A stretch of DNA of 64,000 bases from an uncultured Candidatus Saccharibacteria bacterium (lineage in GTDB: Bacteria; Patescibacteriota; Minisyncoccia; Phycocordibacterales; SBAW01), in assembly GCA_964615415.1 (NCBI GenBank), contig CAZTNI010000001.1:25290-89289 (forward strand), given 5' to 3'. The notes under the pieces were generated by a model. That model did no database searches. It saw only the letters and a program-made list of their open reading frames with translations, and was not told the DNA's origin. This document shows, one piece after another, positions 16,512 through 47,009 of this stretch (position 1 is its first letter; each line of letters opens with the position of its first letter). The position numbers were made by a program, and so were the translations under genes.

Positions 16512-18455
16512 TTATTTTGGCGCAACAATGTCCACTCCACCAGGACCACTGTCTCCTACTAGGCGTGTTGTCGACGGATTTGCCGTAGCGCGTACCGGCA
16601 CCTGCACAAAACGATCTTGGCCGGTTAACACTACTTCGCTTGTTAAGTCTGGCGACTTACCCACCTGGCTCGTACTTGGCACAATCGTTACCTGGAAGGC
16701 AGCCTGTAGTGCTGCTTGGGTGTACCCTACACCCGCTTTAATGTCACCAATGTTCCATCGCACAGTGCGACTTGCTGCGTCGTAGGTTATGCCGCTTCCT
16801 GAAGGACTCGACATAAATTGTACATAAGACGGCAGCGTTGCAGAGACAGACGCATTCGCAACGGTGTTTGCAGAGTTTTTCACTCCCCAGACAATCGTGT
16901 ACGAAGTCGCTTGTTCGGCGCGCGGCGGCATTGGTCCGATATTTTGGAAACCGCCCGTGTAGTGCAGCGTTTTTACATCAAGCGTTGCTTGGGACGCAAG
17001 CTGCACTCGCGCGGTCGCCGCAGATGCAACCGATTCCGGCGCCCCGCCACCTCCCTGACGCACACCGCGCACCTGTAAATTAAGTTCGATAGTTGGGTTT
17101 GTAATAAGCACGCCTGCTTCTCCGGGCTTCAGTGTACTAAATGAGAAGTGGAAGGTTCCTGTTTCGCCTGGCTGTACCGTCGCAAGAGAATTGTTTTGAT
17201 CTTTAGACCAAATAATCGCAGTTTGTGCGGATTGGTAAAATCCATTTCCGGCACTAATAGCATTTTTGTTAAGAGCAGGACCAGCAAATGACAAAATTAA
17301 CTCCACGTTTGAGACCGGATCAGGGAGATTGTTCTTCCACGTCACCGTACCTTCGAGCTGCTCGCCCGCAGCAACAGAGATAGTTTTTCCTGTTTGCCCC
17401 TCGACTGCGATCGTTGCAGAAATAAACGGCTGCCGCACGGTAACAGTCTGCGGCATGATAAGGAACGGGACTTTAATTTTTGTATCGGTCTGGTCGCTGT
17501 TTGACCCCGCAAAGAAGCGGAAGACGCGTTCATCACCATCTTGTCCTTCAAGGGCACCGGTAATTTTAATAGTGCGCGATGCGCCCGGCTGTAGTGTCCC
17601 TAGTCGCCAAAACGTACCCCCTGCATCTGCCTGTGGCTGTGTTGTTCCGACCGTAAATCCAAATGGATACTGTCCTTGCAGCACTAAATTCTCGACAGGC
17701 GTTGTTGCATTAGAACGCACGGTCACGTCCATAGAAATCTCACCCCCCGTTGTTGTGTCAGTTGGCGCAGATACAGTAATTGAAACGGGAGAGGAGCCTA
17801 TCGTGTACGTCGTTTCCGTTTGCTTTTGGAAAACTGCGTTTGAATTTTTAACACTATATTCAAGCGTTGCACGGATTGTTTGCGTTTCCCCTTCTTGTCC
17901 AAACACAAGAGCAGAAGCTGTTTGTTTTATTTGTTCACCTGCAGGAATCGTGCCAATAGTGTGACGGTCGTACGTCAGCTCCTGCGCTGGGTTAGCAGCA
18001 CTGCGCGTGCCATCCGGGTACGTCAAAATAAGATCCGCAAGCTCGAGGTCAGTTTGGTTGCGGTTGGTAATAATAAACTGGAATGTTGCTTCCTTTCCTC
18101 CATCAATCAAAGACGGTGCCACTATTTCAATATCGATGTTCTGTGGAGAGATAGTATTCACTCCTCCTAAAATCATATAAGCGGCGGCGGCAAGTGACAG
18201 GAAGAAGAACGCGGCCGAACCGAGCAAAAATTTAGTAGCCATAGACATACGAGATTTGGTTTGTAGTGGTTGTGACGGCTGAGGTACACCACTTGTTACA
18301 CCTTCCGGCGTTGCAGCAGGTTCCCAAGCACGAGGAGCATCTGCAGTGCTCGGACTAAGGCTCGAGCGGTCTTCTGCAGGCGGTTTAATATCACTTTGAC
18401 GAGCATAGAGCGCGCGTTTAAGCTTCTCTACCCCGCTTTTCTCTTCGGGAACCAT
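16512..18455 (-). CDS. hypothetical membrane-anchored protein with large Thr/Ser-rich extracytoplasmic domain
   Basis: 647 aa. ~70-aa cytoplasmic N-terminus, one TM (FLLGSAAFFFLSLAAAAYMIL), then an all-beta-like extracellular region. Confidence 0.55.
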   Translation of the reverse strand: MVPEEKSGVEKLKRALYARQSDIKPPAEDRSSLSPSTADAPRAWEPAATPEGVTSGVPQPSQPLQTKSRMSMATKFLLGSAAFFFLSLAAAAYMILGGVNTISPQNIDIEIVAPSLIDGGKEATFQFIITNRNQTDLELADLILTYPDGTRSAANPAQELTYDRHTIGTIPAGEQIKQTASALVFGQEGETQTIRATLEYSVKNSNAVFQKQTETTYTIGSSPVSITVSAPTDTTTGGEISMDVTVRSNATTPVENLVLQGQYPFGFTVGTTQPQADAGGTFWRLGTLQPGASRTIKITGALEGQDGDERVFRFFAGSNSDQTDTKIKVPFLIMPQTVTVRQPFISATIAVEGQTGKTISVAAGEQLEGTVTWKNNLPDPVSNVELILSFAGPALNKNAISAGNGFYQSAQTAIIWSKDQNNSLATVQPGETGTFHFSFSTLKPGEAGVLITNPTIELNLQVRGVRQGGGGAPESVASAATARVQLASQATLDVKTLHYTGGFQNIGPMPPRAEQATSYTIVWGVKNSANTVANASVSATLPSYVQFMSSPSGSGITYDAASRTVRWNIGDIKAGVGYTQAALQAAFQVTIVPSTSQVGKSPDLTSEVVLTGQDRFVQVPVRATANPSTTRLVGDSGPGGVDIVAPK

Positions 18456-19053: not shown

Positions 19054-22000
19054 CTATCCCTTCAGGGTAATACCCTGCACCAGTGCTGCCGCTGCAGCGT
19101 CTCCGACTTCTACCTCAAGTGCTGCAAGGCCGGTTTCTTCCATAATCTCTGATTTATATTTCACCACCAAAGCCTCGCCTTCAAGATTCGTCTGCATACT
19201 GACTTGAGGGCGATCACCGATTGAAAGATTCGCCTGCTTGCGGAATTCTTGCACGGCCCGAATCGTGTCACGCAAAAGTCCCTCTTCTTTCAATTCTGGA
19301 GTTAGAGTCGTATCAAGCAAGACTTCTCCTTCCATAGACGCGTCTTGGGTAAGCGCCTTAACATTAAGCTCGTCTTTGAGTATCTCTTGCACTTGTAGAT
19401 TCGTCGGCAGAACTTTCACCGCCATAGACGCAAGAGGTTGACGCACTTTAATCCCCGCCTTGTCACGCGCCTGGAGACCAAGCGACGCGAGCTTGCGTGT
19501 TGTTTCCATTTGCTCAATAAGCAACGTGTCAACATTTCCTGCAGTAGGCCACGACGTAAGGTGCACACTTTCCGCATCGCCGCCAACATCTTTATACAAA
19601 CGCTCTGCAATGAACGGCATAAGAGGAGCACTAAGCTGTGCGAGTGTCAGAAGCACATAACGCTGTGTTGCAAGCGCATACTGTTTGTCTTCTGCATCCT
19701 TCCCCTTCACGCGGTCACGCGAGCGGCGTACATACCACGTAGAATAATCATCAATGAACGATCGCAGCGCGCGGCAAGCACCCGGGGTGTCGTACGCATC
19801 AAGCGCAGCAGTGATCGAAGAAGTGGTTTGATTAAGACGCGACAGTACCCAACGGTCGAGTACATGCGTACTGTTTGCTGCTTGTGTTGAGCCATCATAC
19901 TCCGCCTTGTAGAGCTCGAAAAACTTATAGCAATTCCAGAGCATCTGCACGACGCGATTATGTACCTCGCGCACTTCCTCGTCGCGGAAACTAAAGTCCT
20001 CTGCCTGCATCACCACACTGTTCATGAGGTAAAAGCGCATCGCATCCGCACCAAACATGTCCATCACCAAAAGCGGGTCGGTGTAGTTACCCTTCGACTT
20101 CGACATCTTCGAGCCGTCATTAGCAAGAATATTGCCCGTGGTCACAACGTTACGGAACGACAACTTATTAAACAGGAGTACGCCCATAGCGTGCATGTAG
20201 TAAAACCAGGTGCGCGTCTGTGCAATATACTCGGCAATAAAGTCTGCCGGGTATGCTTTCGGACGCAATCCAAAGAAGCGCTCCGGATTCACCACATCTT
20301 TTTTCATCGGGTAGTGCTCGGATGCAAACGGCATAGCGCCGGACTCCACCCAACAGTCGATGACTTCCGGAATGCGTTCATACTGTCTCCCCTTCTCGTC
20401 TACGAGCGTAATCGCGTCTATGTATGGTCGATGCAAGTCGAGATCGTACTGTTTTGTGTGTGGAAACGGCACAAAGTCGATCGGGCGGATTTCTCCATTA
20501 CGCAAAAACACTACGTCTCCAGCGCCTGCAATACACTCCGCAATAGTTTTACGCTCGACAATCGTGTTAAGAAGCCACGCCGGGCGCTCATGTGTCACGA
20601 TCAAAATATTTTTCCCCGCATAGCGACGCTCAATTTCAAAAATAAAGTCGCCGACACGCTCGCGGATCTGGGTATATGTCTCTGCGCCATCAGTCACGGT
20701 AGTAAATGGATCGCCATGGCTGTTAAACGACGCGCGCCACTCGATAACCGGCTTTCCGTTAAATATACCTACGTCGATTTCTCGCAGACGCTCATCAACC
20801 ATTACTGCCGAGTCCGACACACCAAGGACCTTTTGTGCGATCTTTGCTGTCTCGCGCGTACGTACCAGGGGCGACATGATAATGAGGTCGATTTTATTTT
20901 TTTGCGCAAATGTTTTTACTTGCGCTTCGACTCCTGCCTTCCCCTCTTCAGTCAGGTGGTTATTCGGGTCGCCCTTAGAGTCGAAAATCTGGTCGACATT
21001 GCTCTTCGCCTGACCATGACGCATCACAAAATATTTGTTGCCCGAGCGTTTTGTCTTTTTTGTCAGCTCGTCGATGCTACCCACCACCATAACCTTGTCA
21101 CCTTTCTTTTCCTTCCAAATAGGAAGTGGCGACGCCCAAAAACGATTGCGGGAAATGGTCCAGTCCGGCGCATTCTCCAGATTATTCTTAAAGCGGCCAT
21201 GCTTTAGGTGTTCAGGCACCCAGGTGATTTTTTCGTTTTCAGAAAGCATCTTTGCCTTCACCTTTTGGATATTGATGAACCAAGACCCGACCGCGTTGTA
21301 AATAAGTGGCGTGCCGCAGCGGTAGCAGTGTGGGTACGAGTGCGTATGCGGCTCTTTTTTATAGAGCAGCCCGCGCTTTTCTAGATCTTCTTTAATAAAT
21401 TTCTCTCCTTTTTTAAGATACTGACCACGCAGTGCTTCTGGAACAAGATCGTTATACGTCCCGTTTGCATTCAAAAGCTGCACCATCGGCAACTTTTCTT
21501 TCTGTCCGAGCGCAAAGTCGTCTTCACCGTACATTGGCGCAATGTGCACGATACCAGTACCGTCTGCAGTCGTTACAAAGTCTCCTGCAACTACGACGTA
21601 CTTTTTCCCTTTTACTCCTGCGATAGCAGGCACAGCAAAGAGAGGCTCGTATTCAACTCCAAGCAGTTCTGCACCCATGAGCGCCTTCACTACTTTTGAA
21701 CCTTCCGGCATGCGCTCTGCGGCCATGAGCAAATGCTCAACGCCTTCTTGTACCACTACGTACGAAATATCTTTTCCTACCGCAAGCGCTACATTACCCG
21801 GCAAGGTCCACGGCGTTGTCGTCCACGCAACGATAGATGTGTTTTGCGGCAGACCAGACTTCTCAGGATTTTTTATTTTAAATTTTACGTACGCGGTTTC
21901 TTCCGTAATATCTTTGTACGTGTTGTCCATCGCGATCTCCGCCTTTGCAAGCGGTGTTTCGCAGTGCGTACAGTACATCAAGACCTTGCGACCTTCGTAG

Positions 22001-22506
22001 AGCAGCTTCTTGCTATCCAAACGCTTAAGCGCCCACCAGACAGACTCGATGTACGAGTTGTCCATCGTCTTGTAGGAGTTTTTAAAGTCGACAAAGCGAC
22101 CAACACGGTCGACATACTTCTCCCAGTCGTCCACGTAGCGCAGCACCATCGAGCGTGCGGTTTCATTAAACACATCGATGCCGATATTGAGAATATCTTT
22201 CTTGCTCTTAAGCTCGAGCTTCTTCTCGACCATGCTTTCGATAGGTAGACCGTGCGTGTCCCAACCCCACCGGCGTGGAACATGGTAGCCGCGCATCGTT
22301 TTATAGCGCGGAATTACGTCTTTAATGACAGAAGAAAGGAGCGACCCCGAGTGCGGCAAGCCGGTCGCAAATGGTGGACCATCATAAAAAATAAACTCGC
22401 CCTTTGGAGACTTCTTTTGGAGCGACTTTTCAAAAATATGATTCTCTTTCCAGAAGGCAAGCACTTCCTCCTCGCGCTTGGCAACTTCCGACTTCCCGGT
22501 CGACAT
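19054..22506 (-). CDS. ileS: isoleucyl-tRNA synthetase, type 2 (eukaryote-like), carrying an inserted histidine-phosphatase-like domain
   Basis: FYDGPPFATGLPHSGS...RRWGWDTHGLPIE, TTPWTLPGN editing domain, KMSKSKGN. Residues ~491-690 match His_Phos_1 motifs (MRHGQAKSN, SPLVRTRETA, IVTHE). Confidence 0.9.
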   Translation of the reverse strand: MSTGKSEVAKREEEVLAFWKENHIFEKSLQKKSPKGEFIFYDGPPFATGLPHSGSLLSSVIKDVIPRYKTMRGYHVPRRWGWDTHGLPIESMVEKKLELKSKKDILNIGIDVFNETARSMVLRYVDDWEKYVDRVGRFVDFKNSYKTMDNSYIESVWWALKRLDSKKLLYEGRKVLMYCTHCETPLAKAEIAMDNTYKDITEETAYVKFKIKNPEKSGLPQNTSIVAWTTTPWTLPGNVALAVGKDISYVVVQEGVEHLLMAAERMPEGSKVVKALMGAELLGVEYEPLFAVPAIAGVKGKKYVVVAGDFVTTADGTGIVHIAPMYGEDDFALGQKEKLPMVQLLNANGTYNDLVPEALRGQYLKKGEKFIKEDLEKRGLLYKKEPHTHSYPHCYRCGTPLIYNAVGSWFINIQKVKAKMLSENEKITWVPEHLKHGRFKNNLENAPDWTISRNRFWASPLPIWKEKKGDKVMVVGSIDELTKKTKRSGNKYFVMRHGQAKSNVDQIFDSKGDPNNHLTEEGKAGVEAQVKTFAQKNKIDLIIMSPLVRTRETAKIAQKVLGVSDSAVMVDERLREIDVGIFNGKPVIEWRASFNSHGDPFTTVTDGAETYTQIRERVGDFIFEIERRYAGKNILIVTHERPAWLLNTIVERKTIAECIAGAGDVVFLRNGEIRPIDFVPFPHTKQYDLDLHRPYIDAITLVDEKGRQYERIPEVIDCWVESGAMPFASEHYPMKKDVVNPERFFGLRPKAYPADFIAEYIAQTRTWFYYMHAMGVLLFNKLSFRNVVTTGNILANDGSKMSKSKGNYTDPLLVMDMFGADAMRFYLMNSVVMQAEDFSFRDEEVREVHNRVVQMLWNCYKFFELYKAEYDGSTQAANSTHVLDRWVLSRLNQTTSSITAALDAYDTPGACRALRSFIDDYSTWYVRRSRDRVKGKDAEDKQYALATQRYVLLTLAQLSAPLMPFIAERLYKDVGGDAESVHLTSWPTAGNVDTLLIEQMETTRKLASLGLQARDKAGIKVRQPLASMAVKVLPTNLQVQEILKDELNVKALTQDASMEGEVLLDTTLTPELKEEGLLRDTIRAVQEFRKQANLSIGDRPQVSMQTNLEGEALVVKYKSEIMEETGLAALEVEVGDAAAAALVQGITLKG

Positions 22507-22528: not shown

Positions 22529-24214
22529 CTACATTTTTTCAGGTGCTGGAATACCTAATACATGGAGACCCTTCGCGAGCGTTTGCTCCACCGCTTCCGT
22601 AAGCAAGACACCATAGTGCGGATTACTGCCCCCTATTACTCGTTCGTTTGCATACCAACTGTTAAATGCTGCGGCGAGTTCGGTTATATACGTCGTTACA
22701 TAGTGTGGCTCAAGTTCTTTCGCAGCACGCTCAACTGCGTCTGGGAAATGCAGCAGCGTTTTTTCAAGCACCGAGGCAGTAAGAGGAGCATCACTTGTAT
22801 TCCCTACTATCCCCGCCTCCTTGGCAGCATTCATGAGAGAGAGTGCTCGCGTGTGTGCGTACTGTATATACGGACCAGAATCTCCTTCGAGCGAGAGCGA
22901 CTTTGCCGGATCGAAAATAATATCTTTGCCGCTCCCCTGCTTTAACACTTCGTACTTAATACCTCCCACGGCAACCTCTTCTGCAATCTTGTCAGCATCA
23001 GGAAGGTTTCGGTCGCGCATTTTTTCCTTCGCGTCTTCCGTAAGCTCAGCAATGAGCGACTCGCCGGTAATAACGTTCCCCTTGCGAGACGACATTTTCC
23101 CCGAGGCAAAACGCATCATGCCGTGCGTGACGTGTTTTGTTTTTGCAGCAATGTCTGCAATTGCGGGAATCTGCTTCGCGGCAGCAAGCACCACTTTAAA
23201 ATAATCTTTCTGCTCGCTTGCAGTTACTGTAATAGACTCATCCACGCTCACTGTCTCTTGTTTGAGCTGCAAAAGCCCGAGGTCTTTTGCCTCGTATGTT
23301 GGCAACCCCTGCGACGTTATGAAAACGCGCGTATGCTCGCCATGAAAAACAATCGCTCCTTCGCTTTCCTCAAACACATTTTTATTCTCGTTTACTAACT
23401 GAAGCGCGATCGGCGCTGTCTGACTTTCAAAAAAGTAATGGTCAAACTTTGTACCTAACACTTTGTACAACTCTTCAAAATGCTCGAGTGATTCCTTGCG
23501 GCCCTGGTCATAGAGCGCGCTCACCGTAGCGTCGCTCTTGTCGTACACTTTTTTATTTATCGCATCGATCTCCTCTTTATGTGCCTCGTACTCGTTGTTT
23601 CCATAGACATACGCCTCGCCCCAGCGGAGTTCTGGTTTTTGCATCCTGCCCCAGATTGCCTTCGCCACATGCTGCCCCACATCACCTTGGTAGTTAGCCC
23701 GAATTACTTGCGCACCACCGCGCTCGAGCAAGCGTGCAACACTTTCCCCTATTGTGTTGCTCATGAGATGACCAATATGAAACTCTTTAAAAGGGTTCGG
23801 GTCGGTAAATTCAACCATTATTTTCTTGCCGGCATAGACGCTATTCTTCCCCCACGGCTCTTTTGTTGCAGCCTCTACCTCGCTCGTTATCGCATCGCGC
23901 GAGAGAAAGAAGTTTATAAAACCTGCACCTGCAACTTCAATTTTTTCTATTGACGAAAGCGACGAACCGCCAAACAGCTTCACTAAAAGTCCTGCAGATT
24001 TAGTTTTAGAAAATTTCGTTTTCAAGATTTCACTCAACTGTTCCGCGACTTCACGCGGATTTTTCTTCAAAGACTTTGCTGCCGCAAGAGCGGCGTTTGT
24101 AGAATAGTCACCATGCGCCATGTCCCCGGGCCGCTCCACAACAAAAGACACATCCCCCGCTTGTAGGCTTTGGAGGGCTTCTTTTACTGCCGCTTCTATA
24201 GACTCTCGTATCAC
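22529..24214 (-). CDS. argS: arginyl-tRNA synthetase
   Basis: NPFKEFHIGHLMSNTIGE (HIGH), add-1 N-terminal domain, DALR-like C-terminus. Start assigned to in-frame GTG at 24212-24214 (alternative ATG at 24121). The ORF-track extension to 24754 runs through the high-GC island and an upstream terminator and is low-complexity Arg/Ser sequence. Confidence 0.8.
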   Translation of the reverse strand: MIRESIEAAVKEALQSLQAGDVSFVVERPGDMAHGDYSTNAALAAAKSLKKNPREVAEQLSEILKTKFSKTKSAGLLVKLFGGSSLSSIEKIEVAGAGFINFFLSRDAITSEVEAATKEPWGKNSVYAGKKIMVEFTDPNPFKEFHIGHLMSNTIGESVARLLERGGAQVIRANYQGDVGQHVAKAIWGRMQKPELRWGEAYVYGNNEYEAHKEEIDAINKKVYDKSDATVSALYDQGRKESLEHFEELYKVLGTKFDHYFFESQTAPIALQLVNENKNVFEESEGAIVFHGEHTRVFITSQGLPTYEAKDLGLLQLKQETVSVDESITVTASEQKDYFKVVLAAAKQIPAIADIAAKTKHVTHGMMRFASGKMSSRKGNVITGESLIAELTEDAKEKMRDRNLPDADKIAEEVAVGGIKYEVLKQGSGKDIIFDPAKSLSLEGDSGPYIQYAHTRALSLMNAAKEAGIVGNTSDAPLTASVLEKTLLHFPDAVERAAKELEPHYVTTYITELAAAFNSWYANERVIGGSNPHYGVLLTEAVEQTLAKGLHVLGIPAPEKM

Positions 24215-24242
24215 GTATATAACACTAGCATTTGTAGGCTGT

Positions 24243-24282
24243 ATAAAAAAGAAAGAGCCGGTTCCATTTCTGGAACCGGCTC
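24243..24282 (-). terminator. rho-independent terminator for the island gene
   Basis: gagccggttcc agaaat ggaaccggctc followed by tttcttttttatac on the minus strand. Confidence 0.7.
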
Positions 24283-24311
24283 GAATCGAACTCGGGTGTA
24301 CTTGCTCGGTG

Positions 24312-25358
24312 TTAGCCGAGCGGCAAGAAGGTGCCGACGGTGTCGACACGGTCCGAGAAGACCTTGTACACCTGCACCTGGCCGTTCTGCTCGACTCGGT
24401 CGAGAGCCACGAACGTCCCACCGTTGAGGCCGGCCTTCCGGGCCTCCTGCACGGTCTCCATGCTGGGGTAGATCTGCACGTCGTGCACATCATCCCCGAT
24501 CTCCATGAGAACCGTACGAAGCGGCTTCGGCGCGGACGCCGAGACCATGCCGCGAAGAACGGGCTGCGGCGTAACGACCGCCTTCCCGACCTTCTTGGCA
24601 CCCTGGCCGCGAGGCTTCTCGATCTTGAACGCTTCGAGGAGCTTGCCGACCGTCTTGGTTTCCTCGTCGAAGGACTCGACGAGGATGACGGTCGTTCCGT
24701 GCGGCAACACCATCCACTCGGACGTGGTGACGGGAATGCCCCGCCGCCGCGCACCCTGCGCGTCGAAGCCGAAGATCACGTCGCGCGCGAGAAGCCGGTC
24801 GATCTTCGCCTGCTTCTGCGCCTGACGAGCAGCAACTTCCGCCGCACGCTGTGCATCCTCGGCAGCATTGCGCTGCCGGGCCGCCTCACGCGCAGCAGCC
24901 TCGTCCTTGGAGAAGACGAGCCTCTCCTTGTCGTTGAGGACAAAGCCCCGGCCGAGATACTCGGCAGCAGCCTCCTTGAGCAGGATCCGCTTCCGGATCC
25001 CCGAAGGCTCGTTGTTGACGAACGACGCAAGCGTGCGAACCTTTTCGATCCGCCCTTCACGACCCTTGCCAACGAGGGCGATGACCGGAGTGTCTCCCGC
25101 CATCGCCAGGATGCCGACACCGTCGAAGTCTTCCATGCCGGCGACGGCCTGGAAGGACCAGACCAGCTCGTCATCGATCGAGATCTTCGCGAGCACGAAG
25201 TTGAAGTGCTCCGGCAGATCCTTCTTGCGAAGAAGCTCGAGTTCGAGGGTCTTCCCCTCGACTTCGATCGTGCCGATCTCGACGTAGTGAGTCGAAGTGT
25301 CCTTGTTCTCGATGGTCACGAAACCAGGGAAGGAAATGCGGGAAACAATAGCGGTCAT
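24312..25358 (-). CDS. hypothetical two-domain protein with central Ala/Arg/Gln coiled coil, encoded in a high-GC island
   Basis: 348 aa of normal complexity. AGGAGG SD 6 nt upstream of ATG. GC3-rich codons (gtc gac acg gtc cga gaa gac...). The antisense ORFs here (430 aa on the plus strand and others) are low-complexity artifacts. Confidence 0.6.
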   Translation of the reverse strand: MTAIVSRISFPGFVTIENKDTSTHYVEIGTIEVEGKTLELELLRKKDLPEHFNFVLAKISIDDELVWSFQAVAGMEDFDGVGILAMAGDTPVIALVGKGREGRIEKVRTLASFVNNEPSGIRKRILLKEAAAEYLGRGFVLNDKERLVFSKDEAAAREAARQRNAAEDAQRAAEVAARQAQKQAKIDRLLARDVIFGFDAQGARRRGIPVTTSEWMVLPHGTTVILVESFDEETKTVGKLLEAFKIEKPRGQGAKKVGKAVVTPQPVLRGMVSASAPKPLRTVLMEIGDDVHDVQIYPSMETVQEARKAGLNGGTFVALDRVEQNGQVQVYKVFSDRVDTVGTFLPLG

Positions 25359-39856: not shown

Positions 39857-41452
39857 CTATATCTCCTCAAACGTCGGGATAATATTTGCCGTTACCGACT
39901 GAGTCAGTTGCGAGGTCGTGCGACCGCGATCGATCGTACAGGTAAGTGTGTAGACCGTTTCTGCAGTAATAACCTGCGCGATACTTCCCTGCGAACCAGT
40001 GCCAATTTGAGTGCCGTTTGCTTTGACTGTACATGAACGAGCGTTATTAACACTCCACGCAACGGTTACATTGCTTCCGGTGCGCACTGACGTCGCAGGA
40101 TAGTTACCGTTTACGGTGATTGAAGATGAGACCGGGAGGCACTGGTTGCCTACAACCGCGTATCCGGTATTAGCAGAACAGGATCCGTCGGTTTCCTGGT
40201 GACAATTTGCTGGAACTGAAGTCTGTGCACCTGCAAAGTTTGAACAAAGGTCGCTCGGTACACACTGATTTCCTGAAACTGTATAACCCACATTCGCATC
40301 ACAAGTTCCATTTTGATTGCGATGACAATTGTTTGGCACCGTAAGTTGAGTACCGGAGAAGTTTGAACAGAGGTCCTCTGTTGCTGGAACACACGAACTT
40401 CCCTGGAGCACATACCCTGTTGGACATGACGACACACAAACGCCACTACTATTCATCACTTGTCCACCAGGACATGCCGAGACGCACTGCCCGTTTTGAG
40501 ATACGTAGCCAAACGGCACGGTTCCTTGTTGACCGGAGATATTTGGGCACACATCGCTTTGCGTAGCGACACAGCTATTGTTTTGATACATGTATCCTGC
40601 AGGACAGCCACAGGTCTGAGGATTTCCTTTACCGTTACTGGTACAGTCCGGAGCAGGTACACACTGACCACCCTGCATTACTTGACCATTCGGACATTCT
40701 TGAATCTCTTGGCATTGTGAAGATGCTGACTGTACCCCAGGAACATTCGGACAGTGGTCGGTTGGTCCCGTATTGTTGTCATTTCCTCCCTCTCCACCGC
40801 TGCATTCATTTTCAGGAATAGTCGTATGCACTTCGAGCTGGCTGCTTTCGTAATACTCTACGTAGTAGCCGCAAGGCTCCCCGTCGCCATAGGTCAACAC
40901 GTTCCATTCACGATGACACCCGCTGCTATCACATTGCACTCCTCCTACATATGAATCCCCTAGTCTTTCACACTCCAAACCTCCACTCGTATTGCAGTCT
41001 CCTTGGTTTGCAATCCTATCTGCGTCTCTCCATGCCGCTGCTTCAGCGCTAGACAAACAGCGTCCATCGAGAACCATTGTTGAGCACGTGTCGCCGCTTC
41101 CTCCTCCGCCCCCGGAAGAACTGCAATATTCTGTATACCCATGTGAACACCAATATTCCGCAGAGTAGCAGTTACCATCAGAGCCTAGTGTTTCTCCTCC
41201 GCTACATGCCTGAGACCCGCCACCTGAACCACTGCAGTAACTTGAGTATCCTTGACTGCACCAATAGTCAGCATCGCTGTTCGCACTACTTCCCTCGTAG
41301 TAGTTACCATCCGGTCCTTGGTAACAAGTTACTGTTGCTCCTGAACTTGTTTGGCAAGTAGCCGCATTTGCAGGTGTAGGAACAAAAAATGACAGAGCTG
41401 CAAGGAAGAAAAATCCAAGAATGAGTGCACCGCGTTTTATAGATAGAGTCAT
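39857..41452 (-). CDS. secreted cysteine-rich repeat protein with conserved C-terminal domain and IPTFEEI tail
   Basis: Signal peptide MTLSIKRGALILGFFFLAALSFFVPTPANA. Many CPxGxVxQGxxCV-type repeats. C-terminal domain ...TVYTLTCT...SVTANIIPTFEEI. Confidence 0.7.
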   Translation of the reverse strand: MTLSIKRGALILGFFFLAALSFFVPTPANAATCQTSSGATVTCYQGPDGNYYEGSSANSDADYWCSQGYSSYCSGSGGGSQACSGGETLGSDGNCYSAEYWCSHGYTEYCSSSGGGGGSGDTCSTMVLDGRCLSSAEAAAWRDADRIANQGDCNTSGGLECERLGDSYVGGVQCDSSGCHREWNVLTYGDGEPCGYYVEYYESSQLEVHTTIPENECSGGEGGNDNNTGPTDHCPNVPGVQSASSQCQEIQECPNGQVMQGGQCVPAPDCTSNGKGNPQTCGCPAGYMYQNNSCVATQSDVCPNISGQQGTVPFGYVSQNGQCVSACPGGQVMNSSGVCVSSCPTGYVLQGSSCVPATEDLCSNFSGTQLTVPNNCHRNQNGTCDANVGYTVSGNQCVPSDLCSNFAGAQTSVPANCHQETDGSCSANTGYAVVGNQCLPVSSSITVNGNYPATSVRTGSNVTVAWSVNNARSCTVKANGTQIGTGSQGSIAQVITAETVYTLTCTIDRGRTTSQLTQSVTANIIPTFEEI

Positions 41453-41456
41453 AAAA

Positions 41457-41810
41457 TTACTGGTTAGCTGCGGGAGGAAGCACTTGTGTTGGAGGTGTAT
41501 TGTCTGAAGGTATTGGCATCGGTATTACCGGAAACACTGGTGTTTCTGTTTGAGGTTCAACTTCTGATATTTCATAGAGCACGTACCATGCGGCACCTGC
41601 CCCTCCACACAAAAGAGCGACAATAAATACCCCGAGCAATATCCACAAGGTTTTTTTATGACCTAACTCAGGTGGAAGAGTAGAAACAGGAGCAGACACA
41701 GGAGACGTTTTCATATTTTCTGAAGCCATACTTCTTTTAGTATAGCTCCCCTCTGTAGCTATCCACATAAAACACTGTCGTGTGTGGATAAAAGAAAAAG
41801 GGCCACGCAT
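41457..41810 (-). CDS. small Pro-rich single-TM membrane protein
   Basis: 4 nt upstream of the Cys-rich gene. TM segment LWILLGVFIVALLCGGAGAAWYVL. Confidence 0.4.
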   Translation of the reverse strand: MRGPFSFIHTRQCFMWIATEGSYTKRSMASENMKTSPVSAPVSTLPPELGHKKTLWILLGVFIVALLCGGAGAAWYVLYEISEVEPQTETPVFPVIPMPIPSDNTPPTQVLPPAANQ

Positions 41811-41825
41811 GTGATTGCGTGACCC
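41787..41825 (-). terminator. rho-independent terminator
   Basis: gggtcacgca atcaca tgcgtggccc followed by tttttctttta on the minus strand. Confidence 0.65.
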
Positions 41826-41859
41826 TATAAGTCGTTCACCCCCATGAGACCTCGCGATC

Positions 41860-42660: not shown

Positions 42661-44211
42661 TCACAGGACCGACCTTTTGTCAAGCCTCCCTACTCTCTGG
42701 CCAAAAAAGCCTGAAAAGACAACCAAAAGTGCACCTATGGGAAAGAACGTACCGAACACCTGGTAAGGAGTGGAGTCGGTACGCAGAGGTACGTCTTCCT
42801 CCACTACACTAGAGAGATCCCATGAAGTCTCTGTGACAACCATACCACGATTGTCGAGCATGTACGCTGGGGACATGTTGCCGGATTGCACGTACCACCT
42901 CCCCTCCTCCACTGCGCGCACTTTCGCTATCGATTGCATCTGTGCAAAAACGGTACGCGACCCATGGAACCAGCTGTAGGAGGAAACATTTGCGAGTACT
43001 GACGCTCCCTTTTCTACATCACGAGCATATAAGTACGGACTCATAACTTCGTCACAAAAACGTACTGCCATATTCCCACTCCCCACCTGTGCAAGTTTTG
43101 TGTGTGTCCCACTTACGTACGAACGTGTATTTCGCACTTGTTCTTGAAACGCCTTATTCCCTACCAACGCGAGCACTCCGTGCGATATATACGGCACGTA
43201 CTCACCAAGTGGAAGGATAAATTGTTTGTCACTCGTTTCAATACGACCATCGCGATACACAAAGATACTTCGCGCGTGCGTGTTGCCGTCATTGCTTCTC
43301 ACACTTTCTGCATCTATGAATAGCGGAACTTGCGGCACCATGTTCGCATCGCGCGCATACCGTGCAAATGCCGCACTCTCTGGAAGTAGCAGTGCTTCCG
43401 CAGTTACATGTGGCGCAACAAGTGTTGCAAGTGTATCTATACGAGTTTCCGCTTCGCCCGGAAGGAAGTGAAGTTGTGGCGGGAAGTACGTACTTACTGC
43501 AGCGACGCGAATAGTTTCTTCACTCGTCGTAATATTTCCAAACAACGACCACGCTCCATACCCGCTCACACAGCACACAACGACAATACTTACGCCGACA
43601 TAGATGTTGCGCTCGATGTTCTTCGTTGTAATGACTCTATATATAAGAACATTCACGAGTATCACTGTTGCGCTCAACAGGTATACACCGCCAACGGACG
43701 CAAGTTGCAACAACAACGCATTATTCGCGAGCACGTATCCCAAGTGACCTAAGGTAAAGTGCGCACCCAGGAGCGATCCGTTTCCTGCAAACACAAATGC
43801 AAAGACGTGCGCATGCAACCATTCCCCCACTACCCATGCAGACGGAATGCATACAAGCACGGTGTATCGATACGAAAGAAAATACTGCAGCACCACTGCA
43901 AACACCGCTGTTCCAAGCGAGAGTACGCAGACTGAAAAAATCCAGTGTGTGCCGACTGCAAGTATTTGGAGTAGTGGGTGTTCAATCCCAAACCAATCTA
44001 TCGGCAGTGTGTGCCAAAAAATTGCCCACAATGCTAACCCATACAAAGGGAGTCCGAGTAAAAAACCTCTGAACGCTTGAGTGGAAAGACCGACTGGTCG
44101 TTTTGTCGTTATAAAAAGAAATGGCAAAAACCCTACCAGTGCAAGTGGCCACAGGGCAGGGACAACAAATCCCACACCAAGAAAAATGCCGGAAACGAAA
44201 GATGCTATCAA
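42661..44211 (-). CDS. lnt: apolipoprotein N-acyltransferase-like (N-terminal multi-TM + CN-hydrolase domain)
   Basis: Catalytic-triad contexts LLLPESAAF (Glu), SDKQFILPLGEYVPY (Lys), VRFCDEVMSP (Cys). C-terminal TM. Confidence 0.7.
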   Translation of the reverse strand: MIASFVSGIFLGVGFVVPALWPLALVGFLPFLFITTKRPVGLSTQAFRGFLLGLPLYGLALWAIFWHTLPIDWFGIEHPLLQILAVGTHWIFSVCVLSLGTAVFAVVLQYFLSYRYTVLVCIPSAWVVGEWLHAHVFAFVFAGNGSLLGAHFTLGHLGYVLANNALLLQLASVGGVYLLSATVILVNVLIYRVITTKNIERNIYVGVSIVVVCCVSGYGAWSLFGNITTSEETIRVAAVSTYFPPQLHFLPGEAETRIDTLATLVAPHVTAEALLLPESAAFARYARDANMVPQVPLFIDAESVRSNDGNTHARSIFVYRDGRIETSDKQFILPLGEYVPYISHGVLALVGNKAFQEQVRNTRSYVSGTHTKLAQVGSGNMAVRFCDEVMSPYLYARDVEKGASVLANVSSYSWFHGSRTVFAQMQSIAKVRAVEEGRWYVQSGNMSPAYMLDNRGMVVTETSWDLSSVVEEDVPLRTDSTPYQVFGTFFPIGALLVVFSGFFGQRVGRLDKRSVL

Positions 44212-46551
44212 TTAGATTTCCTGAAACGCTGGCAACAGCGTAATCGTTGCGGTCGCACTTACACTTGTCTCACCATTGCTACAGGTAAGCGTATAGCGTT
44301 TTGTCTGTGTAATAGCAGTTGTTGAAACAGTACCCGTGGTGCTGGTAACGCTGTATGTACCAGTGTCATCTGTCGGGTCTGGAGAGATAGTGCAGGTAAG
44401 ACCTGTGATTGAACTGAGTGTCCAGCGGAGTGTCGAGGCTACGCCACGGCGAACTTTGTCGCCATAGAACGAGGAAATACTTGGCAAGTTAGCAACACAC
44501 TGTGTACCACTCCAGCTAAATCCTGATGGAATACAGCTGCCAGTAGGACCTGGGTTTGGCGCACTGCAGCCCGTTGGAACAGACGCCTGTCCGCCAATGA
44601 TGTCGGTACAAATATCGAGTGAACATTGGCTCCCCGTCCAGTAGTATCCTGACGGAATACATACACCTGATGGGCTTGGAGTTGGACCGGCGCAGCCCGT
44701 TGGAAGTGATGATTGCGAACCACCAACATCCGTACACACATCCGCTGGTCCAACGGTTACGGTAACCGTGTCTACCGCACTACTCCCTCCTGCTCCTGTG
44801 CACGTCAATGTATACGTGTACGTGCCGAGTGTAGAAAATGGGCCAACAGTGCGCTCTACGCCACTCGTACCCGTCGTAGATCCAGTCCACGGCGCAGCAG
44901 CATCTTTAGTGAGGGTGCAGTCGCTCGAGTTAGTAGACGACCAACTAAACGGAAGAGACGAACCTTGTGTTGTCGACACTGTGTCATCCGCTTCATTATT
45001 TCCAAGCAAGTCTGCAGTAGTGGCTGGGTTTACAGTTAGCGTTGTAGAACACGTGCCGCTGCCACCTGGTCCGGTTACGGTGCCGGTGTACGTAGTTGTC
45101 GTACTTGGCCCAACTGAAGTAGAACCTGCGCCCGGAGGAGTAGACACAGTCCCAACACTGGTTATTGAAAATGAGGTTGCCGCTGTTGAAGACCAGGTGA
45201 GCGTAGACGAACCACCACTATTTATAGTGCTTGGGCTAAGACTCAAGGTACACGTTGGTGTTGTAGCAGCAGTCCACGTAACGCGAACTTCTCCAAGACC
45301 ACCATAACTACCATCAACTTCTCTGTTCGGACCTCCGGTGCCTGTACTACCGCGTGCACCTACAGTAACTGCAATTGATGAGTCTTGGGTTAGTTCTCCA
45401 AAAGAAAATGTTTTGGTCGCATAGCCACCACCACCGCCTCCACCACCGTCGTTACTTAAACCACGACTGCCTCCACCTCCACCGCCGCCTGGCGACTTTC
45501 CGTAGTTTCCAAAAATAATGCCGGGACCGACAGCGCCGCCGCCATCACCCCCTGGTCCGCCCGCATCACCTCCACTACCACTCCAGTTGCCGGTCGGGTA
45601 TCCAGCATTATTACCGTCCTCTCCGTCTTGACTACCAGAACCTCCTCCCGAAGTCGATCCGCCGTCTCCACCAGGACCATTTCCTCCACAACAATAACTA
45701 GATGCGCGCCCCTTTTCTCCTCCATTAGCAATAACAGGGGTCGGAGAATTAAATTTACTTTGACCGCCGTTGGTTGCGTCGTCTTGCGACCACCATCCTG
45801 CCGAGCCACCACCGCCACCACCTCCCCACACTTCTACCGTCAAAGAGTCATATGCCGGAACAGTGAAAGTACCTGAAGACGTAAAGTGTTGTGTACCGCC
45901 GGTAGCGTCTATCCAGGTAATGCGTACCTCTCCGCGCGCGCCGTCACCTCCATCAGGGCTACCACTTGTAGCACCCGAGCCCCCAGACCCTACTGTTACG
46001 CTTATGTTAGACCCTGCTGTAAGCTCACCGCTTGTGTACGTTCTTGTTGCGTATGCTCCTCCTCCGCCGCCACCATAGTTTTTATAATATCCTGAAAAGT
46101 ATTCTGAATAGGAACTACTGCCTCCTCCCCCAGGAATCATACCGTTTGCCCCGTTGTCAGTGAGTGTATTAGGCGCCCCTTTACCACCGGCAGCCCCTCC
46201 TGCATTACCGCCCGCGCCTCCGCTCGCGCCACTCTGGCCCGCACTACCATTTGCACCTGAAGTTGCCCCAGAGTATGTACCTCCAGAACCTGCAGTACCA
46301 TTGTTATCGCCCCTACTTCCGCCATTCGCTATAAGCGGCGTGGGTGCATTAAATTTACTTTGCCCACCGTTACTACCATCAGCGTTGGAATTAGCGCCTC
46401 CTCCTCCACCGCCCCACACCTCCACTGTTATAGATGTATAGCCCGTAGGTACAGTAAAAGTGCCCGAACTTGTAAATGTTTGAGAGCCTGCAAACACAAG
46501 CTGTGGAAGAAATAAGAGTACACTGGCGAGAAGTAATTTTTTCATGATCAT
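44212..46551 (-). CDS. secreted glycine-rich protein with ~200-aa internal tandem duplication and conserved C-terminal domain/LPAFQEI tail
   Basis: Signal peptide MIMKKLLLASVLLFLPQLVFA. Two copies of QxFTSSGTFTVP..TVEVWGGGGGG...NGGQSKFN.PTP.IANGG...GEVR.TW. C-terminus ...KRYTLTCSNGETSVSATATITLLPAFQEI. Confidence 0.7.
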   Translation of the reverse strand: MIMKKLLLASVLLFLPQLVFAGSQTFTSSGTFTVPTGYTSITVEVWGGGGGGANSNADGSNGGQSKFNAPTPLIANGGSRGDNNGTAGSGGTYSGATSGANGSAGQSGASGGAGGNAGGAAGGKGAPNTLTDNGANGMIPGGGGSSSYSEYFSGYYKNYGGGGGGAYATRTYTSGELTAGSNISVTVGSGGSGATSGSPDGGDGARGEVRITWIDATGGTQHFTSSGTFTVPAYDSLTVEVWGGGGGGGSAGWWSQDDATNGGQSKFNSPTPVIANGGEKGRASSYCCGGNGPGGDGGSTSGGGSGSQDGEDGNNAGYPTGNWSGSGGDAGGPGGDGGGAVGPGIIFGNYGKSPGGGGGGGSRGLSNDGGGGGGGGYATKTFSFGELTQDSSIAVTVGARGSTGTGGPNREVDGSYGGLGEVRVTWTAATTPTCTLSLSPSTINSGGSSTLTWSSTAATSFSITSVGTVSTPPGAGSTSVGPSTTTTYTGTVTGPGGSGTCSTTLTVNPATTADLLGNNEADDTVSTTQGSSLPFSWSSTNSSDCTLTKDAAAPWTGSTTGTSGVERTVGPFSTLGTYTYTLTCTGAGGSSAVDTVTVTVGPADVCTDVGGSQSSLPTGCAGPTPSPSGVCIPSGYYWTGSQCSLDICTDIIGGQASVPTGCSAPNPGPTGSCIPSGFSWSGTQCVANLPSISSFYGDKVRRGVASTLRWTLSSITGLTCTISPDPTDDTGTYSVTSTTGTVSTTAITQTKRYTLTCSNGETSVSATATITLLPAFQEI

Positions 46552-47009
46552 TGACCTACATATACAACACCGACTTGCTTGCCACTTTTGTTATGGAACA
46601 GCCAGGTACCTTGCTCTTTAAATTTAAATTCCCAAAATTCTCCTGATGAAAGATTTTTGCACGAGTTAAATGCAGACTCGCCACACTCCCCTTCTTCTGG
46701 GTACGGAGGATTATCGATCGAAGAAACTCCTTCGAGCCACAGCTTCCCACCCGAGTTGTTTATAAATCGGATTGTGTCACCTGCGCGCACACGCACTTCC
46801 GACGGCTCAAAACGCGCATCGGAAAGAGAGACCAGATGTTCAAACCCGCCTTGACTTGAAGCAGGATTAGACGGCAACTCCGTTGTGATATTTTCCTCTT
46901 CCACAGGCAAAGGAGTAAGACTCGGCAAAAATATCCACGCAACAAAAAATGCAACACCTCCTAAGACAAGAAGAATGATAAGGGGGAGATATTTTTTAAC
47001 ATCCCACAT
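46548..47009 (-). CDS. hypothetical secreted/anchored protein with cupredoxin-like beta domain; translationally coupled (ATGA) to the Gly-rich gene
   Basis: N-terminal TM YLPLIILLVLGGVAFFVAWIFL. EVRVRAGDTIRFINNSGG pattern. Confidence 0.45.
   Translation of the reverse strand: MWDVKKYLPLIILLVLGGVAFFVAWIFLPSLTPLPVEEENITTELPSNPASSQGGFEHLVSLSDARFEPSEVRVRAGDTIRFINNSGGKLWLEGVSSIDNPPYPEEGECGESAFNSCKNLSSGEFWEFKFKEQGTWLFHNKSGKQVGVVYVGQ

Follow-up and report, generated by a model that had tools for sequence, protein, structure and literature searches.

A terminal Ig-like domain with a conserved five-residue tail on probable envelope proteins of Patescibacteria, and its candidate TPR reader

Two genes in the window, which denotes the whole 64-kb stretch of DNA analysed, encode exported proteins that end in nearly the same residues, raising the question of whether this ending is a sorting tag and, if so, what might read it. 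Tail protein 1 (531 aa; 39857..41452, minus strand) starts with a signal peptide (...PANA/ATC), followed by a Cys-rich region, Cys repeats and a terminal Ig-like domain (CTD; residues 440-531; 39860..40135, minus strand). The domain closes with the tail P-T-F-E-E-I (39860..39877, minus strand), directly before the TAG stop codon (39857..39859), and the interval 39857..39920 covers the 20 final codons of the protein plus this stop. Tail protein 2 (779 aa; 44212..46551, minus strand) has a signal peptide (...VFA/GSQ), two Gly_rich_2-type regions, two internal Ig-like copies (about residues 430-600; 44752..45264, minus strand, located by alignment), Cys repeats and a terminal Ig-like domain (about residues 685-779; 44215..44499, minus strand) ending in the tail P-A-F-Q-E-I (44215..44232). 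Pfam matched PF21722 in tail protein 2 with 30.4 bits, whereas tail protein 1 gave nothing above cut-off in Pfam or NCBIfam. Both signal peptides are of the AxA type, and a lipobox is absent from the two sequences.

The ending of the 531-aa ORF reads TANIIPTFEEI (in full VYTLTCTIDRGRTTSQLTQSVTANIIPTFEEI, then stop) and that of the 779-aa ORF TITLLPAFQEI (in full KRYTLTCSNGETSVSATATITLLPAFQEI, then stop), with VTANIIPTFEEI and ATITLLPAFQEI as the respective tail strings. A sequence-only reading of this DNA had proposed that the two proteins share their ending, and a six-frame scan of the 64-kb window agrees: among 3063 stop-terminated peptides, P.F[EQ]E[ILV]$ ($ marks the peptide end) occurs only in the two tail proteins, compared to a chance expectation that we estimate at about 0.002. 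The common C-terminal Ig-like domain of about 90 aa was likewise confirmed, and the further internal copy claimed for the Gly-rich protein does exist, except that there are two of them. With 531 and 779 aa, neither protein is "giant", as had been stated. Nor are they "otherwise unrelated", for BLASTP (E=5e-9) also aligns the upstream Cys-rich repeats (C.N..G.Q..VP..C), and the two are paralogous over about 230 aa. This paralogy would suit an ending that has no function and was merely inherited from the local duplication of one domain. That explanation is almost certainly wrong: the two terminal domains are just 37% identical over about 90 aa (both Cys kept), yet the tail is retained, and it also persists, at a fixed distance from the stop codon, in about 75 metagenome-assembled genomes (MAGs) and among cluster representatives at the 50%-identity level.

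The tail is in fact far from confined to these two proteins, the outcome that would have reduced it to a local duplication. HMMER and DNA-pattern scans found about 100 further genes outside the window that end in V-N-[ILV]2-P-x-[FYW]-x-E-x-stop, nearly all of them in Patescibacteria. A profile built from the two window domains was run in a full HMMER scan against a library of 1.8 billion proteins grouped into 50%-identity clusters, in which tail protein 1 is representative P0001, and recovered 570 cluster representatives at E<1e-3. The best 150 of these 570 include 57 with P.[FYW].E.$ endings, with the consensus VTVN[IL][ILV]P.[FY]QE[IFL]. In addition, a hand-designed degenerate DNA pattern (V-N-phi-phi-P-x-[FY]-[QE]-E-phi-stop) matched 119 stretches in 185,579 GTDB species genomes. 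In about 95 of the matches the tail closes a long ORF, and nearly all of these come from Patescibacteria MAGs; 17 matches, in other phyla, have no ORF, against about 17 expected by chance on our own estimate. The tail pattern had no match in viral contigs.

There are several tail genes per genome, for example five in one Kaiserbacteria MAG (three at locus L019, one each at L023 and L041), and each of sixteen 8-kb blocks contains at least two, often in tandem. The encoded proteins range from 190 to 1205 aa and have varied passenger regions. Most of 75 full-length members possess an N-terminal hydrophobic signal or anchor segment, as judged by eye, and a Pfam search on 73 members assigned CARDB to 14, PKD_4 to 11 and Gly_rich_2 to three, most having no match at all. 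The profile and DNA-pattern scans thereby bear out the earlier suggestion of a strictly C-terminal conserved motif on many different secreted proteins. On the best explanation, both tail proteins are members of an extensive class of envelope proteins, exported by Sec and specific to the lineage, in Patescibacteria (CPR), above all those of the Parcubacteria type.

What is conserved is a specialised Ig-like β-sandwich of about 90 aa at the end of the protein, with two conserved Cys, and after it a five-residue tail, x-[FYW]-x-E-x, which ends at the free C-terminus. The landmarks of the sandwich are R-V-R within strand one, I-x-x-Q ahead of the YTLTC strand, and V-N-[ILV]-[ILV]-P, which closes the last strand. 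Domain copies collected with a tail-blind HMM show how tightly the tail is bound to the protein end: the distance from the last-strand Pro to the stop is exactly five residues in 153 of 154 terminal domains, and x[FYW]xE follows the domain in 145 of 154 terminal copies versus one of 191 internal copies. Glu occupies position -2 in 151 of the 154, so that both the extreme C-terminal position and the nearby acidic side chain of an EEVD-like ligand are present. All eight terminal domains that lie outside the ascertainment by DNA pattern also have the tail, each with Glu at -2. Part of what had been read as a conserved tail is shared more widely: the five residues after the Pro are indeed specific to the terminus, whereas each copy of the domain, wherever it lies, finishes with T.T..P[AT], the internal copies of tail protein 2 ending in TVTVGPA and TLTVNPA. 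These internal copies also lack the terminal-specific R-V-R, Q and N; overall, terminal and internal copies from the same proteins differ at R12, R14, Q62 and N84.

The domain of tail protein 1 was modelled by AlphaFold2 as an eight-strand β-sandwich with a mean pLDDT of 93.6, its last strand formed by domain residues 73-86. Foldseek comparison of this model against the PDB retrieved only generic Ig, FN3 and PKD folds (TM 0.55-0.64, E>=2.7e-3), none of them specific. No Pfam or NCBIfam model covers the domain, and the match of an internal copy to a K319L-like PKD domain in Pfam is weak. A word-indexed protein search returned nothing usable with either the 92-aa domain or a 55-sequence alignment as query. 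We found no description of the domain and tail in the literature searched, where the literal tail strings match only the hydrology term "REVAP", and nothing relevant in work on sorting signals, sortases or protein sorting in CPR, Patescibacteria or Parcubacteria; the C-terminal domain and its five-residue tail are thus apparently undescribed. N84, Q62 and the invariant Glu had raised the idea of an intramolecular isopeptide- or ester-bond domain (CnaA/CnaB, Thr-Gln), which was dismissed: such a bond needs a conserved Lys or His, and the domain has none, its strand-A positions being Arg.

The model bears directly on whether the tail needs an external reader. It could instead be an intramolecular cap that folds back on its own Ig-like domain and thereby stabilises or seals the last domain of a stalk, in which case Glu(-2) and the C-terminal carboxylate would form salt bridges with R-V-R, while the aromatic and last residues would pack on the edge of the sandwich. 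The terminal-specific R12, R14, Q62 and N84 could hold an acidic tail in this way, a clasp within the domain itself that would count against a recognition tag, and both the fixed five-residue length and the moderately high pLDDT of the tail in the monomer model (mean 89 for model residues 81-90 and 75 for residues 91-92) suit such a structure. Against this, DSSP describes the modelled tail as coil outside the sandwich, beyond the last strand. Moreover, Ig-like domains that end other proteins from the same search, such as P0044, P0080 and P0116, have no tail, and therefore the fold needs none. The tail is conversely found on proteins without a terminal Ig-like domain: [FYW]xEx$ ends 10 of 91 of these, compared to 0.17 expected (p=3e-15), and [FYW]xExxx$ ends six, for example with NWREVAP. 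As a cap would also leave the pairing with TPR genes described below unexplained, we consider it unlikely.

Could the tail instead be a covalent sorting signal? The sequence-only reading had compared it with LPXTG, PEP-CTERM and GlyGly-CTERM, while noting that it matched no motif known to it. The latter holds, as no curated sorting-signal model was matched (NCBIfam at E<=1, Pfam at E<=0.1). The tail does resemble the signals of sortases, exosortases, archaeosortases and rhombosortases (LPXTG, PEP-CTERM, PGF-CTERM and GlyGly-CTERM) in that it is strictly C-terminal, lineage-restricted, carried by varied secreted proteins and present several times per genome. However, those signals are tripartite, with a motif, a transmembrane helix and a basic tail, and are cleaved, whereas the present proteins end five residues after the Pro and lack a transmembrane segment, a basic tail and a leaving group. 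An LPXTG/sortase signal was rejected on these grounds: a hydrophobic segment and a charged tail are missing, and 153 of 154 relatives likewise stop at the fifth residue past the Pro. PEP-CTERM, PGF-CTERM and GlyGly-CTERM were rejected with no NCBIfam match for either protein at E<=1. Lacking the hydrophobic segment, the tail does not belong with the signals of sortase or exosortase type.

A related proposal places the Lnt-like acyltransferase of the cluster at the centre of a dedicated system, in which it would process the tail and attach the proteins covalently to lipid or wall. The enzyme (42661..44211, minus strand) is a genuine apolipoprotein N-acyltransferase (Lnt) homologue, scoring 145.4 bits against the TIGR00546 cut-off of 132.9 and containing LNT_N (PF20154) and CN_hydrolase (PF00795). 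It directly follows tail protein 2, and Lnt genes adjoin tail genes, in several orientations, at five of about 95 other loci (L005, L053, L074, L103 and L109), which exceeds a rough chance level of about 0.3% per gene. Nevertheless, some of these loci are syntenic with the window and therefore not independent, and about 90 of the 95 have no Lnt nearby, so the Lnt-centred system is not general. Lnt acylates the N-terminal amine of lipoproteins, yet neither window protein has a lipobox; and since nothing follows the motif, a transpeptidation would have neither a leaving group nor a source of energy. Processing by Lnt is thus very improbable, and the homologue is probably a neighbour outside the tail system. 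What survives of the earlier overall reading is a genuine, strictly C-terminal motif, stripped of the covalent-signal architecture and of its Lnt-centred machinery.

We tentatively propose, at somewhat less than even confidence, that the tail is a recognition tag at the free C-terminus by which the proteins are kept or assembled at the cell surface, and that an anchored TPR protein probably reads it; binding, surface exposure and topology are all inferred. In this scheme, a Sec-exported envelope protein would carry a C-terminal module made of the Ig-like domain and an exposed tail. The tag would present two carboxylates, one from Glu at -2 and the other the COO- of the main chain, with an aromatic and a usually hydrophobic residue beside them, and would retain or assemble the proteins at the cell surface non-covalently. 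Its most likely reader would be a conserved, N-terminally membrane-anchored TPR family with the TPR domain predicted to face outward, working in the manner of Hop, SGTA and Tom70 with EEVD-type C-termini, PEX5 with PTS1, or BamD with the C-terminal signal of outer-membrane proteins. Some tails end in a polar residue (Q, K, R, E, T or N), and some variants have two or three extra residues after E-phi, features that fit a strict free-carboxylate pocket poorly.

The TPR family emerged from gene neighbourhoods. Searching forward from the tail genes, eight to nine of the 52 genes directly upstream belong to this one anchored family. A reverse, tail-blind search with the TPR motif WxxAYPGN[DNHY]P yielded 120 metagenome loci, 92 of them with the TPR family. 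The strict tail ends 26 of 55 products of the gene after the TPR gene versus four of 519 others (odds ratio 115, p=1e-25), figures to be read with the facts that the TPR gene pairs with one orthologous tail-protein family (f1, itself N-terminally anchored), that the 64-kb window contains no TPR homologue, and that neighbourhood statistics are inflated by conserved synteny in CPR genomes, the TPR-f1 pair adjoining the S10 operon. When variant tails such as PxLEEF and NW[KR]E[VI]AP are included, 52 of 66 genes after the TPR gene qualify, 15 of the 52 without an Ig domain. The coordinates of the TPR and tail genes overlap, which suggests translational coupling. By sequence, the family matches consensus TPR, Tom70/71 and STIP1 chains, and our mapping from the alignment would place its conserved R, N and W residues at groove-facing TPR positions. 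It falls into two subfamilies, "GNYYF" with tails ending in F, L or I, and "GERHF" with tails ending in Q, R, K, E or T; covariation of TPR columns with the last tail residue was discarded as support, being confounded by phylogeny. The TPR protein is the only recurrent candidate reader, and the neighbourhood evidence favours it over Lnt. Other conserved genes close to many tail genes, namely L25, SLT_2, L31, RF1, S2, EF-Ts, two small membrane proteins, GT2 and a YcaO plus nitroreductase pair, were dismissed as partners, since they look like housekeeping synteny; the dominant contexts of tail genes elsewhere are ribosomal-gene neighbourhoods.

The TPR protein may, however, serve only its f1 partner and not every tail protein. 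This restricted role is part of another explanation, in which the domain and tail act as a homotypic or assembly signal that polymerises the proteins or docks them to each other, to an S-layer or to the wall, for example by edge-strand addition, and the TPR protein is a chaperone or partner of f1 alone. Its pairing with a single orthologous family is in line with this, as are the tandem genes and the cassettes in which each tail gene lies behind a different small anchored protein. At about ten loci the neighbour of the cassettes is an SLT_2 lytic transglycosylase with a coiled coil, which assemblies that span the wall would lead one to expect. On the other hand, no strand is missing from the sandwich in the model, which is complete, and a repeat-fibre architecture is not evident; we regard an assembly signal of this kind as unlikely.

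The closest parallel for the TPR-read tag is the two-carboxylate clamp, by which TPR grooves recognise free C-termini, a mechanism that is well established (PMC5101480). As in the pairs formed by Hop/STIP1, CHIP, SGTA and Tom70 with IEEVD, MEEVD or DMSLD, and by PEX5 with the PTS1 tripeptide, the motif is very short, lies at the extreme C-terminus and sets an acidic residue beside the free carboxylate with flanking hydrophobic contacts, and a TPR protein is paired with it, here at the level of genes. The proposed system would differ in being extracytoplasmic and bacterial, in a monoderm-like CPR envelope; in using the penultimate Glu rather than a terminal Asp as the second carboxylate, with a usually hydrophobic last residue; and in normally placing the tag on a dedicated Ig-like domain. 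BamD, a TPR lipoprotein that reads the β-signal, and the DegS PDZ domain, which reads YxF-COOH, are likewise envelope readers of an aromatic-containing extreme C-terminus on exported proteins. They serve outer-membrane biogenesis and stress sensing in diderms, with β-barrel substrates and a motif that ends in Phe, and this motif lacks the invariant Glu.

Two other systems resemble the tail proteins in overall layout. The C-terminal domain of T9SS substrates in Bacteroidota (Por_Secre_tail, TIGR04183) is also an Ig-like sandwich (about 80-100 aa) that occurs many times per genome, on Sec-exported proteins whose passengers vary widely. Compared to it, the present domain shares the sandwich fold and has no match to its Pfam or NCBIfam models, so membership was rejected; the conserved part is the last five residues with the free C-terminus, there is no sign of cleavage, and the hosts are Patescibacteria, which are not known to have an outer membrane or a T9SS. 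The WxL-domain/csc clusters of lactobacilli and enterococci similarly combine a C-terminal domain, non-covalent surface attachment and small membrane-anchored partners, but are unrelated in sequence and fold, and are not known to contain a TPR component.

Patescibacteria make up a very large share of bacterial diversity. Those known in culture all grow attached to host cells, and little is understood about the construction and anchoring of their surface proteins. Searching for a terminal Ig-like domain that leads into x-[FYW]-x-E-x and the stop is a simple rule that would flag candidate secreted or surface proteins in their genomes, including many "hypothetical" CARDB-, PKD- and Gly-rich proteins that are likely adhesins, and would indicate the anchored TPR family as a concrete partner candidate. 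If the TPR partnership is true, the tail would represent a new class of protein-sorting signal that has no membrane segment, is not cleaved and has its free C-terminus recognised outside the cytoplasm. A wider and still more doubtful generalisation is that CPR display much of their surface proteome independently of sortases and non-covalently, by means of an aromatic-x-Glu-x-COOH tag, usually borne by a dedicated Ig-like domain, which an extracytoplasmic anchored TPR receptor would capture. Such a system would be the bacterial equivalent, at the cell surface, of PEX5-PTS1 or Hop-EEVD recognition, and the entire surface proteome of these episymbionts could then be predicted from sequence.

Within the window, the genes around the two tail genes follow an arrangement seen at other loci. 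A small bitopic membrane protein (41457..41810, minus strand; 117 aa as an ORF and 103 aa in the public gene call) is encoded directly upstream of tail protein 1, in the same order of an anchored partner gene followed by a tail gene; elsewhere, a gene with a single N-terminal hydrophobic segment precedes 50 of 73 tail genes versus 75 of 744 other genes. Upstream of tail protein 2 lies the gene for an N-terminally anchored, cupredoxin-like protein of 153 aa (46548..47009, minus strand), whose stop overlaps the start of the tail gene. Its matches to cupredoxin and plastocyanin models in Pfam and NCBIfam are weak and all below cut-off, and cupredoxin-like homologues adjoin tail genes at two further loci (L031 and L097). 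Finally, a terminator-like hairpin of 11 pairs followed by a T-run (41799..41826, minus strand; a consensus match only) probably marks the boundary between two transcription units within the cluster.

The sequence-only reading had noticed a common C-terminal tail on two proteins of the window, encoded co-directionally on the minus strand. Protein 1 (531 residues, 39857..41452 (-)) ends in ...TVYTLTCTIDRGRTTSQLTQSVTANIIPTFEEI, followed by a TAG stop, and protein 2 (779 residues, 44212..46551 (-)) ends in ...KRYTLTCSNGETSVSATATITLLPAFQEI. The shared tail is real: among the 3063 stop-terminated peptides that the window yields in six frames, only these two have the ending P.F[EQ]E[ILV], with a chance expectation that we estimate at ~0.002. 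Their C-terminal 92-95 residues align with 37% identity, both cysteines being kept, and protein 2 has two internal copies of this Ig-like domain, rather than the single further copy counted earlier. These internal copies end in TVTVGPA... and TLTVNPA..., so the T.T..P part of the originally described motif simply closes the domain, and specific to the terminus are the five residues past the proline. The two proteins had also been taken as otherwise unrelated; in fact they are partial paralogues, since BLASTP (E=5e-9) also aligns Cys-rich repeats, 'C.N..G.Q..VP..C', that precede the domain in both. Both sequences have AxA-type signal peptides, and neither has a lipobox. The sole Pfam match was a Gly_rich_2 region in protein 2, with nothing over either C-terminal domain, and NCBIfam, which includes curated CTERM sorting-domain models, matched neither protein, even at E<=1. 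The sortase/exosortase and T9SS signal families were tested for their defining features and rejected, the tail lacking them.

A HMMER profile of the two window domains gave 570 matches at E<1e-3 among 1.84 billion cluster representatives; of the best 150 of these, 57 have the ending P.[FYW].E.$, and their consensus is V-T-V-N-[IL]-[ILV]-P-x-[FY]-Q-E-[IFL]. A degenerate DNA pattern (V-N-phi-phi-P-x-[FY]-[QE]-E-phi-stop, ~36 bits), run on one genome per GTDB species, matched 119 stretches, ~95 of them long ORFs ending in the tail; 17 lack an ORF and lie in unrelated phyla, and ~17 chance matches are expected by our estimate. The real matches come from MAGs named Paceibacterota, Patescibacteria, Parcubacteria, Kaiserbacteria, Nomurabacteria or Minisyncoccia, and from TPA bins labelled 'Candidatus Saccharibacteria' with the same synteny. 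A few lie in bins with other labels, which we read as binning or labelling issues because at least one of these loci (L094) has the same Patescibacteria synteny. Viral contigs gave no tail matches. Moreover, even the narrow DNA pattern found five tail genes in one Kaiserbacteria MAG, and at least two in each of sixteen 8-kb blocks. This breadth and the several copies per genome rule out a local duplication as the origin of the shared ending. It is a lineage-wide and apparently undescribed C-terminal module of surface proteins of Patescibacteria. The only non-terminal case seen is the cluster representative P0140 (329 aa), in which ...IINIIPNFEE precedes 16 further residues, TCPPLYHHENGICIHD. 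A 52-aa ORF ending in ...AVNILPSFQEI, kept in two Nostoc MAGs (L032 2210..2368 and L042 3607..3765), is probably a chance match in the frame of another gene.

The 75 full-length tail proteins range from 190 to 1205 aa, and by eye most possess a hydrophobic signal or anchor segment at the N-terminus. Pfam assigned CARDB to 14 of 73 tail proteins, PKD_4 to 11, Gly_rich_2 to three and other domains to a few, leaving most without a known domain and none with an obvious enzyme domain; they look like adhesin or surface-structure proteins. AlphaFold2, given the terminal 92 residues and an alignment of 55 sequences, folds the terminal domain into an eight-strand β-sandwich (mean pLDDT 93.6), of which the last strand comprises residues 73-86, followed by the tail (P87-I92) as a coil with pLDDT dropping to ~75. 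Foldseek against the PDB returned only generic Ig, FN3 and PKD sandwiches for this model. With an HMM that ends at the conserved proline and is thus blind to the tail, x-[FYW]-x-E was found after the proline in 145 of 154 C-terminal domain copies, most of the other nine having an aliphatic variant such as P-T-V-K-E-I, compared to one of 191 internal copies, and exactly five residues follow the proline in 153 of the 154; since the queries behind the main sets themselves include the tail, the tail proportions are upper estimates. Free of this bias are the internal/terminal contrast and eight independent terminal copies in the retrieved loci, all of them out of reach of the DNA pattern and all bearing the tail. 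Terminal copies also differ from internal copies of the same proteins at R12 and R14 (R-V-R, first strand), Q62 and N84, so conservation extends beyond the tail to a specialised terminal domain, the two forming one unit. That the tail serves as an intramolecular cap seems unlikely to us.

The motif also occurs beyond this domain. Ten of 91 matches with a C-terminus other than the Ig-like domain end in [FYW]-x-E-x, against 0.17 expected from how often the motif occurs internally in these proteins (p=3e-15). Six matches without a terminal Ig-like domain have extended [FYW]-x-E-x-x-x endings (e.g. NWREVSF, NWIEVNP, EFKEVSP and VWREVAP), which sit after a four-Cys module. The short motif thus behaves like a tag able to sit on other C-terminal contexts. 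A homotypic or assembly role we consider rather improbable. The four-Cys unit, C[WF]xC...C...C..C with the ending [FYW]-[RKI]-E-[VIN]-x-x (e.g. NWREVSF, NWKEVAP), constitutes a second C-terminal module, carried by P0004, P0016, P0081, P0092 and P0098 and at loci L169 and L213.

An apolipoprotein N-acyltransferase (Lnt) homologue lies between proteins 1 and 2 (42661..44211 (-)), scoring 145 bits with the NCBIfam model TIGR00546 (cut-off 133); judged by its sequence, it is a genuine one. Its start is ambiguous: a TTG abutting the protein 2 stop (window 44211 / L001 5860) gives 516 aa, and the start in the public gene call lies 36 nt further downstream, giving 504 aa. The dedicated system earlier envisaged around this enzyme is not supported. 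Lnt homologues adjoin a tail gene in five other loci only (L005, L053, L074, L103 and L109), of which L053 is syntenic with the window; the adjacency is above chance and far from general. Moreover, Lnt N-acylates lipoprotein N-termini, a reaction that does not lead to a C-terminal tag. We accordingly regard covalent processing, by Lnt or otherwise, as very improbable. Within the supposed seven-gene cluster, a terminator-like hairpin (41799..41826 (-); 11 bp with 7 GC, followed by a T-run) probably divides the genes into two transcription units, suggesting one with the cupredoxin-like gene, protein 2, Lnt and two small secreted proteins, and another with the small membrane protein and protein 1.

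Another neighbour is a co-directional upstream gene whose product has a single N-terminal hydrophobic segment, present for 50 of 73 tail genes versus 75 of 744 other genes. The window repeats this pattern, as protein 2 follows the cupredoxin-like anchored protein and protein 1 follows a small, Pro-rich anchored one. A hotspot common to about 30 GTDB loci has the order L25 - SLT_2 lytic transglycosylase - [small anchored protein + tail protein]n - L31 - RF1 - S2 - EF-Ts. It is seen at L033, L038, L039, L057, L058, L061, L067, L110 and L115, with a secreted, coiled-coil transglycosylase of ~450 aa and one to three cassettes; beyond EF-Ts lie two unknown small membrane proteins and a GT2 glycosyltransferase. 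A distinct two-gene cassette has small proteins with a conserved 'AWTGPTxxAPxxNVxAPINVGxxxQxKxGGL' N-terminal region directly before tail genes (L044, L075, L086, L100 and L114); the tail proteins of L044, L075, L086 and L114 start with 'S(D/S)NLSG(W/Y)AWS..IGWVSFN'.

In a Pfam scan, one TPR family accounts for 8-9 of 52 genes immediately upstream of tail genes. Its members (240-305 aa) are basic at the N-terminus and contain one transmembrane segment, for which the positive-inside rule predicts an N-in/C-out topology with the TPR domain outside. They match no specific NCBIfam family, and resemble in sequence consensus TPR, OGT, Tom70/71 and STIP1. The proteins downstream belong to one family, f1, with its own N-terminal anchor, and the TPR stop frequently overlaps the downstream start. 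Independently of the tail, the TPR motif W-x-x-A-Y-P-G-N-[DNHY]-P was searched in metagenome contigs, and 92 of 120 matched loci have a family member. The next same-strand gene could be evaluated in 55 cases and bears the strict tail in 26 of them, versus 4 of 519 other genes at these loci (odds ratio 115, p=1e-25), statistics to which conserved synteny contributes, as the TPR-f1 cassette is usually found immediately upstream of the S10 ribosomal operon, near a YcaO-nitroreductase pair. Nevertheless, TPR and tail genes remain paired in loci with different surrounding genes. When both locus sets are pooled and variant endings (P-x-L-E-E-F, NW[KR]E[VI]AP, PIFEEIPPS, PNFLEVLDR and others) are counted as well, 52 of 66 proteins downstream of the TPR gene are tailed, 15 of them without an Ig-like terminal domain. 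Two proteins with the four-Cys module are encoded immediately after a gene of the TPR family. The 64-kb window itself contains no TPR gene.

TPR grooves are classic readers of free C-termini, as in PEX5 for PTS1 and in BamD for the C-terminal signal of outer-membrane proteins. The two-carboxylate clamp of the TPR proteins Hop, SGTA and Tom70 binds IEEVD, MEEVD or DMSLD (PMC5101480). Recognition of this kind calls for four features, all of which the tail has: an invariant Glu adjacent to the C-terminus, a constant spacing to the free carboxylate, an aromatic residue at -4 and a usually hydrophobic last residue. [quoted passage not shown] We therefore propose that an exposed tail might be captured non-covalently by the anchored TPR protein, which would retain or assemble tail proteins at the cell surface. 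The analysis demonstrates the motif and where it occurs, the fold and the pairing of the genes; topology, exposure and binding we infer. Such a recognition tag read by the TPR protein is our tentative choice, held with less than even confidence. However, some tails end in a polar residue or run on for two to three residues more, and the TPR protein may serve its neighbour family f1 only.

Adjoining the f2-TPR-tail cassette, just upstream of the S10 operon, are a YcaO cyclodehydratase-like gene (~500 aa) and a nitroreductase/McbC-like gene (~246 aa), which might represent a RiPP-type or a ribosomal-modification system, at L123, L131, L135, L149, L187, L212, L226, L239 and ~15 other metagenome loci, sometimes with a small ORF (f14, ~116 aa) between them.

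The remaining window encodes housekeeping functions (tRNA synthetases, RecA, RuvABC, PolA, FtsK, PBP, a PilB-like ATPase and eight tRNAs), and several local genes have their closest relatives in Paceibacterota/Patescibacteria MAGs. A 647-aa DUF11-repeat protein (16512..18455 (-)), likely another surface protein, ends in ...GGVDIVAPK without the tail. The isoleucyl-tRNA synthetase (19054..22506 (-), 1150 aa) has its catalytic domain split into halves by an inserted His_Phos_1 (histidine-phosphatase) domain (residues 493-646), and the arginyl-tRNA synthetase (22529..24754 (-), 741 aa) carries an unannotated N-terminal extension of ~180 aa before Arg_tRNA_synt_N.
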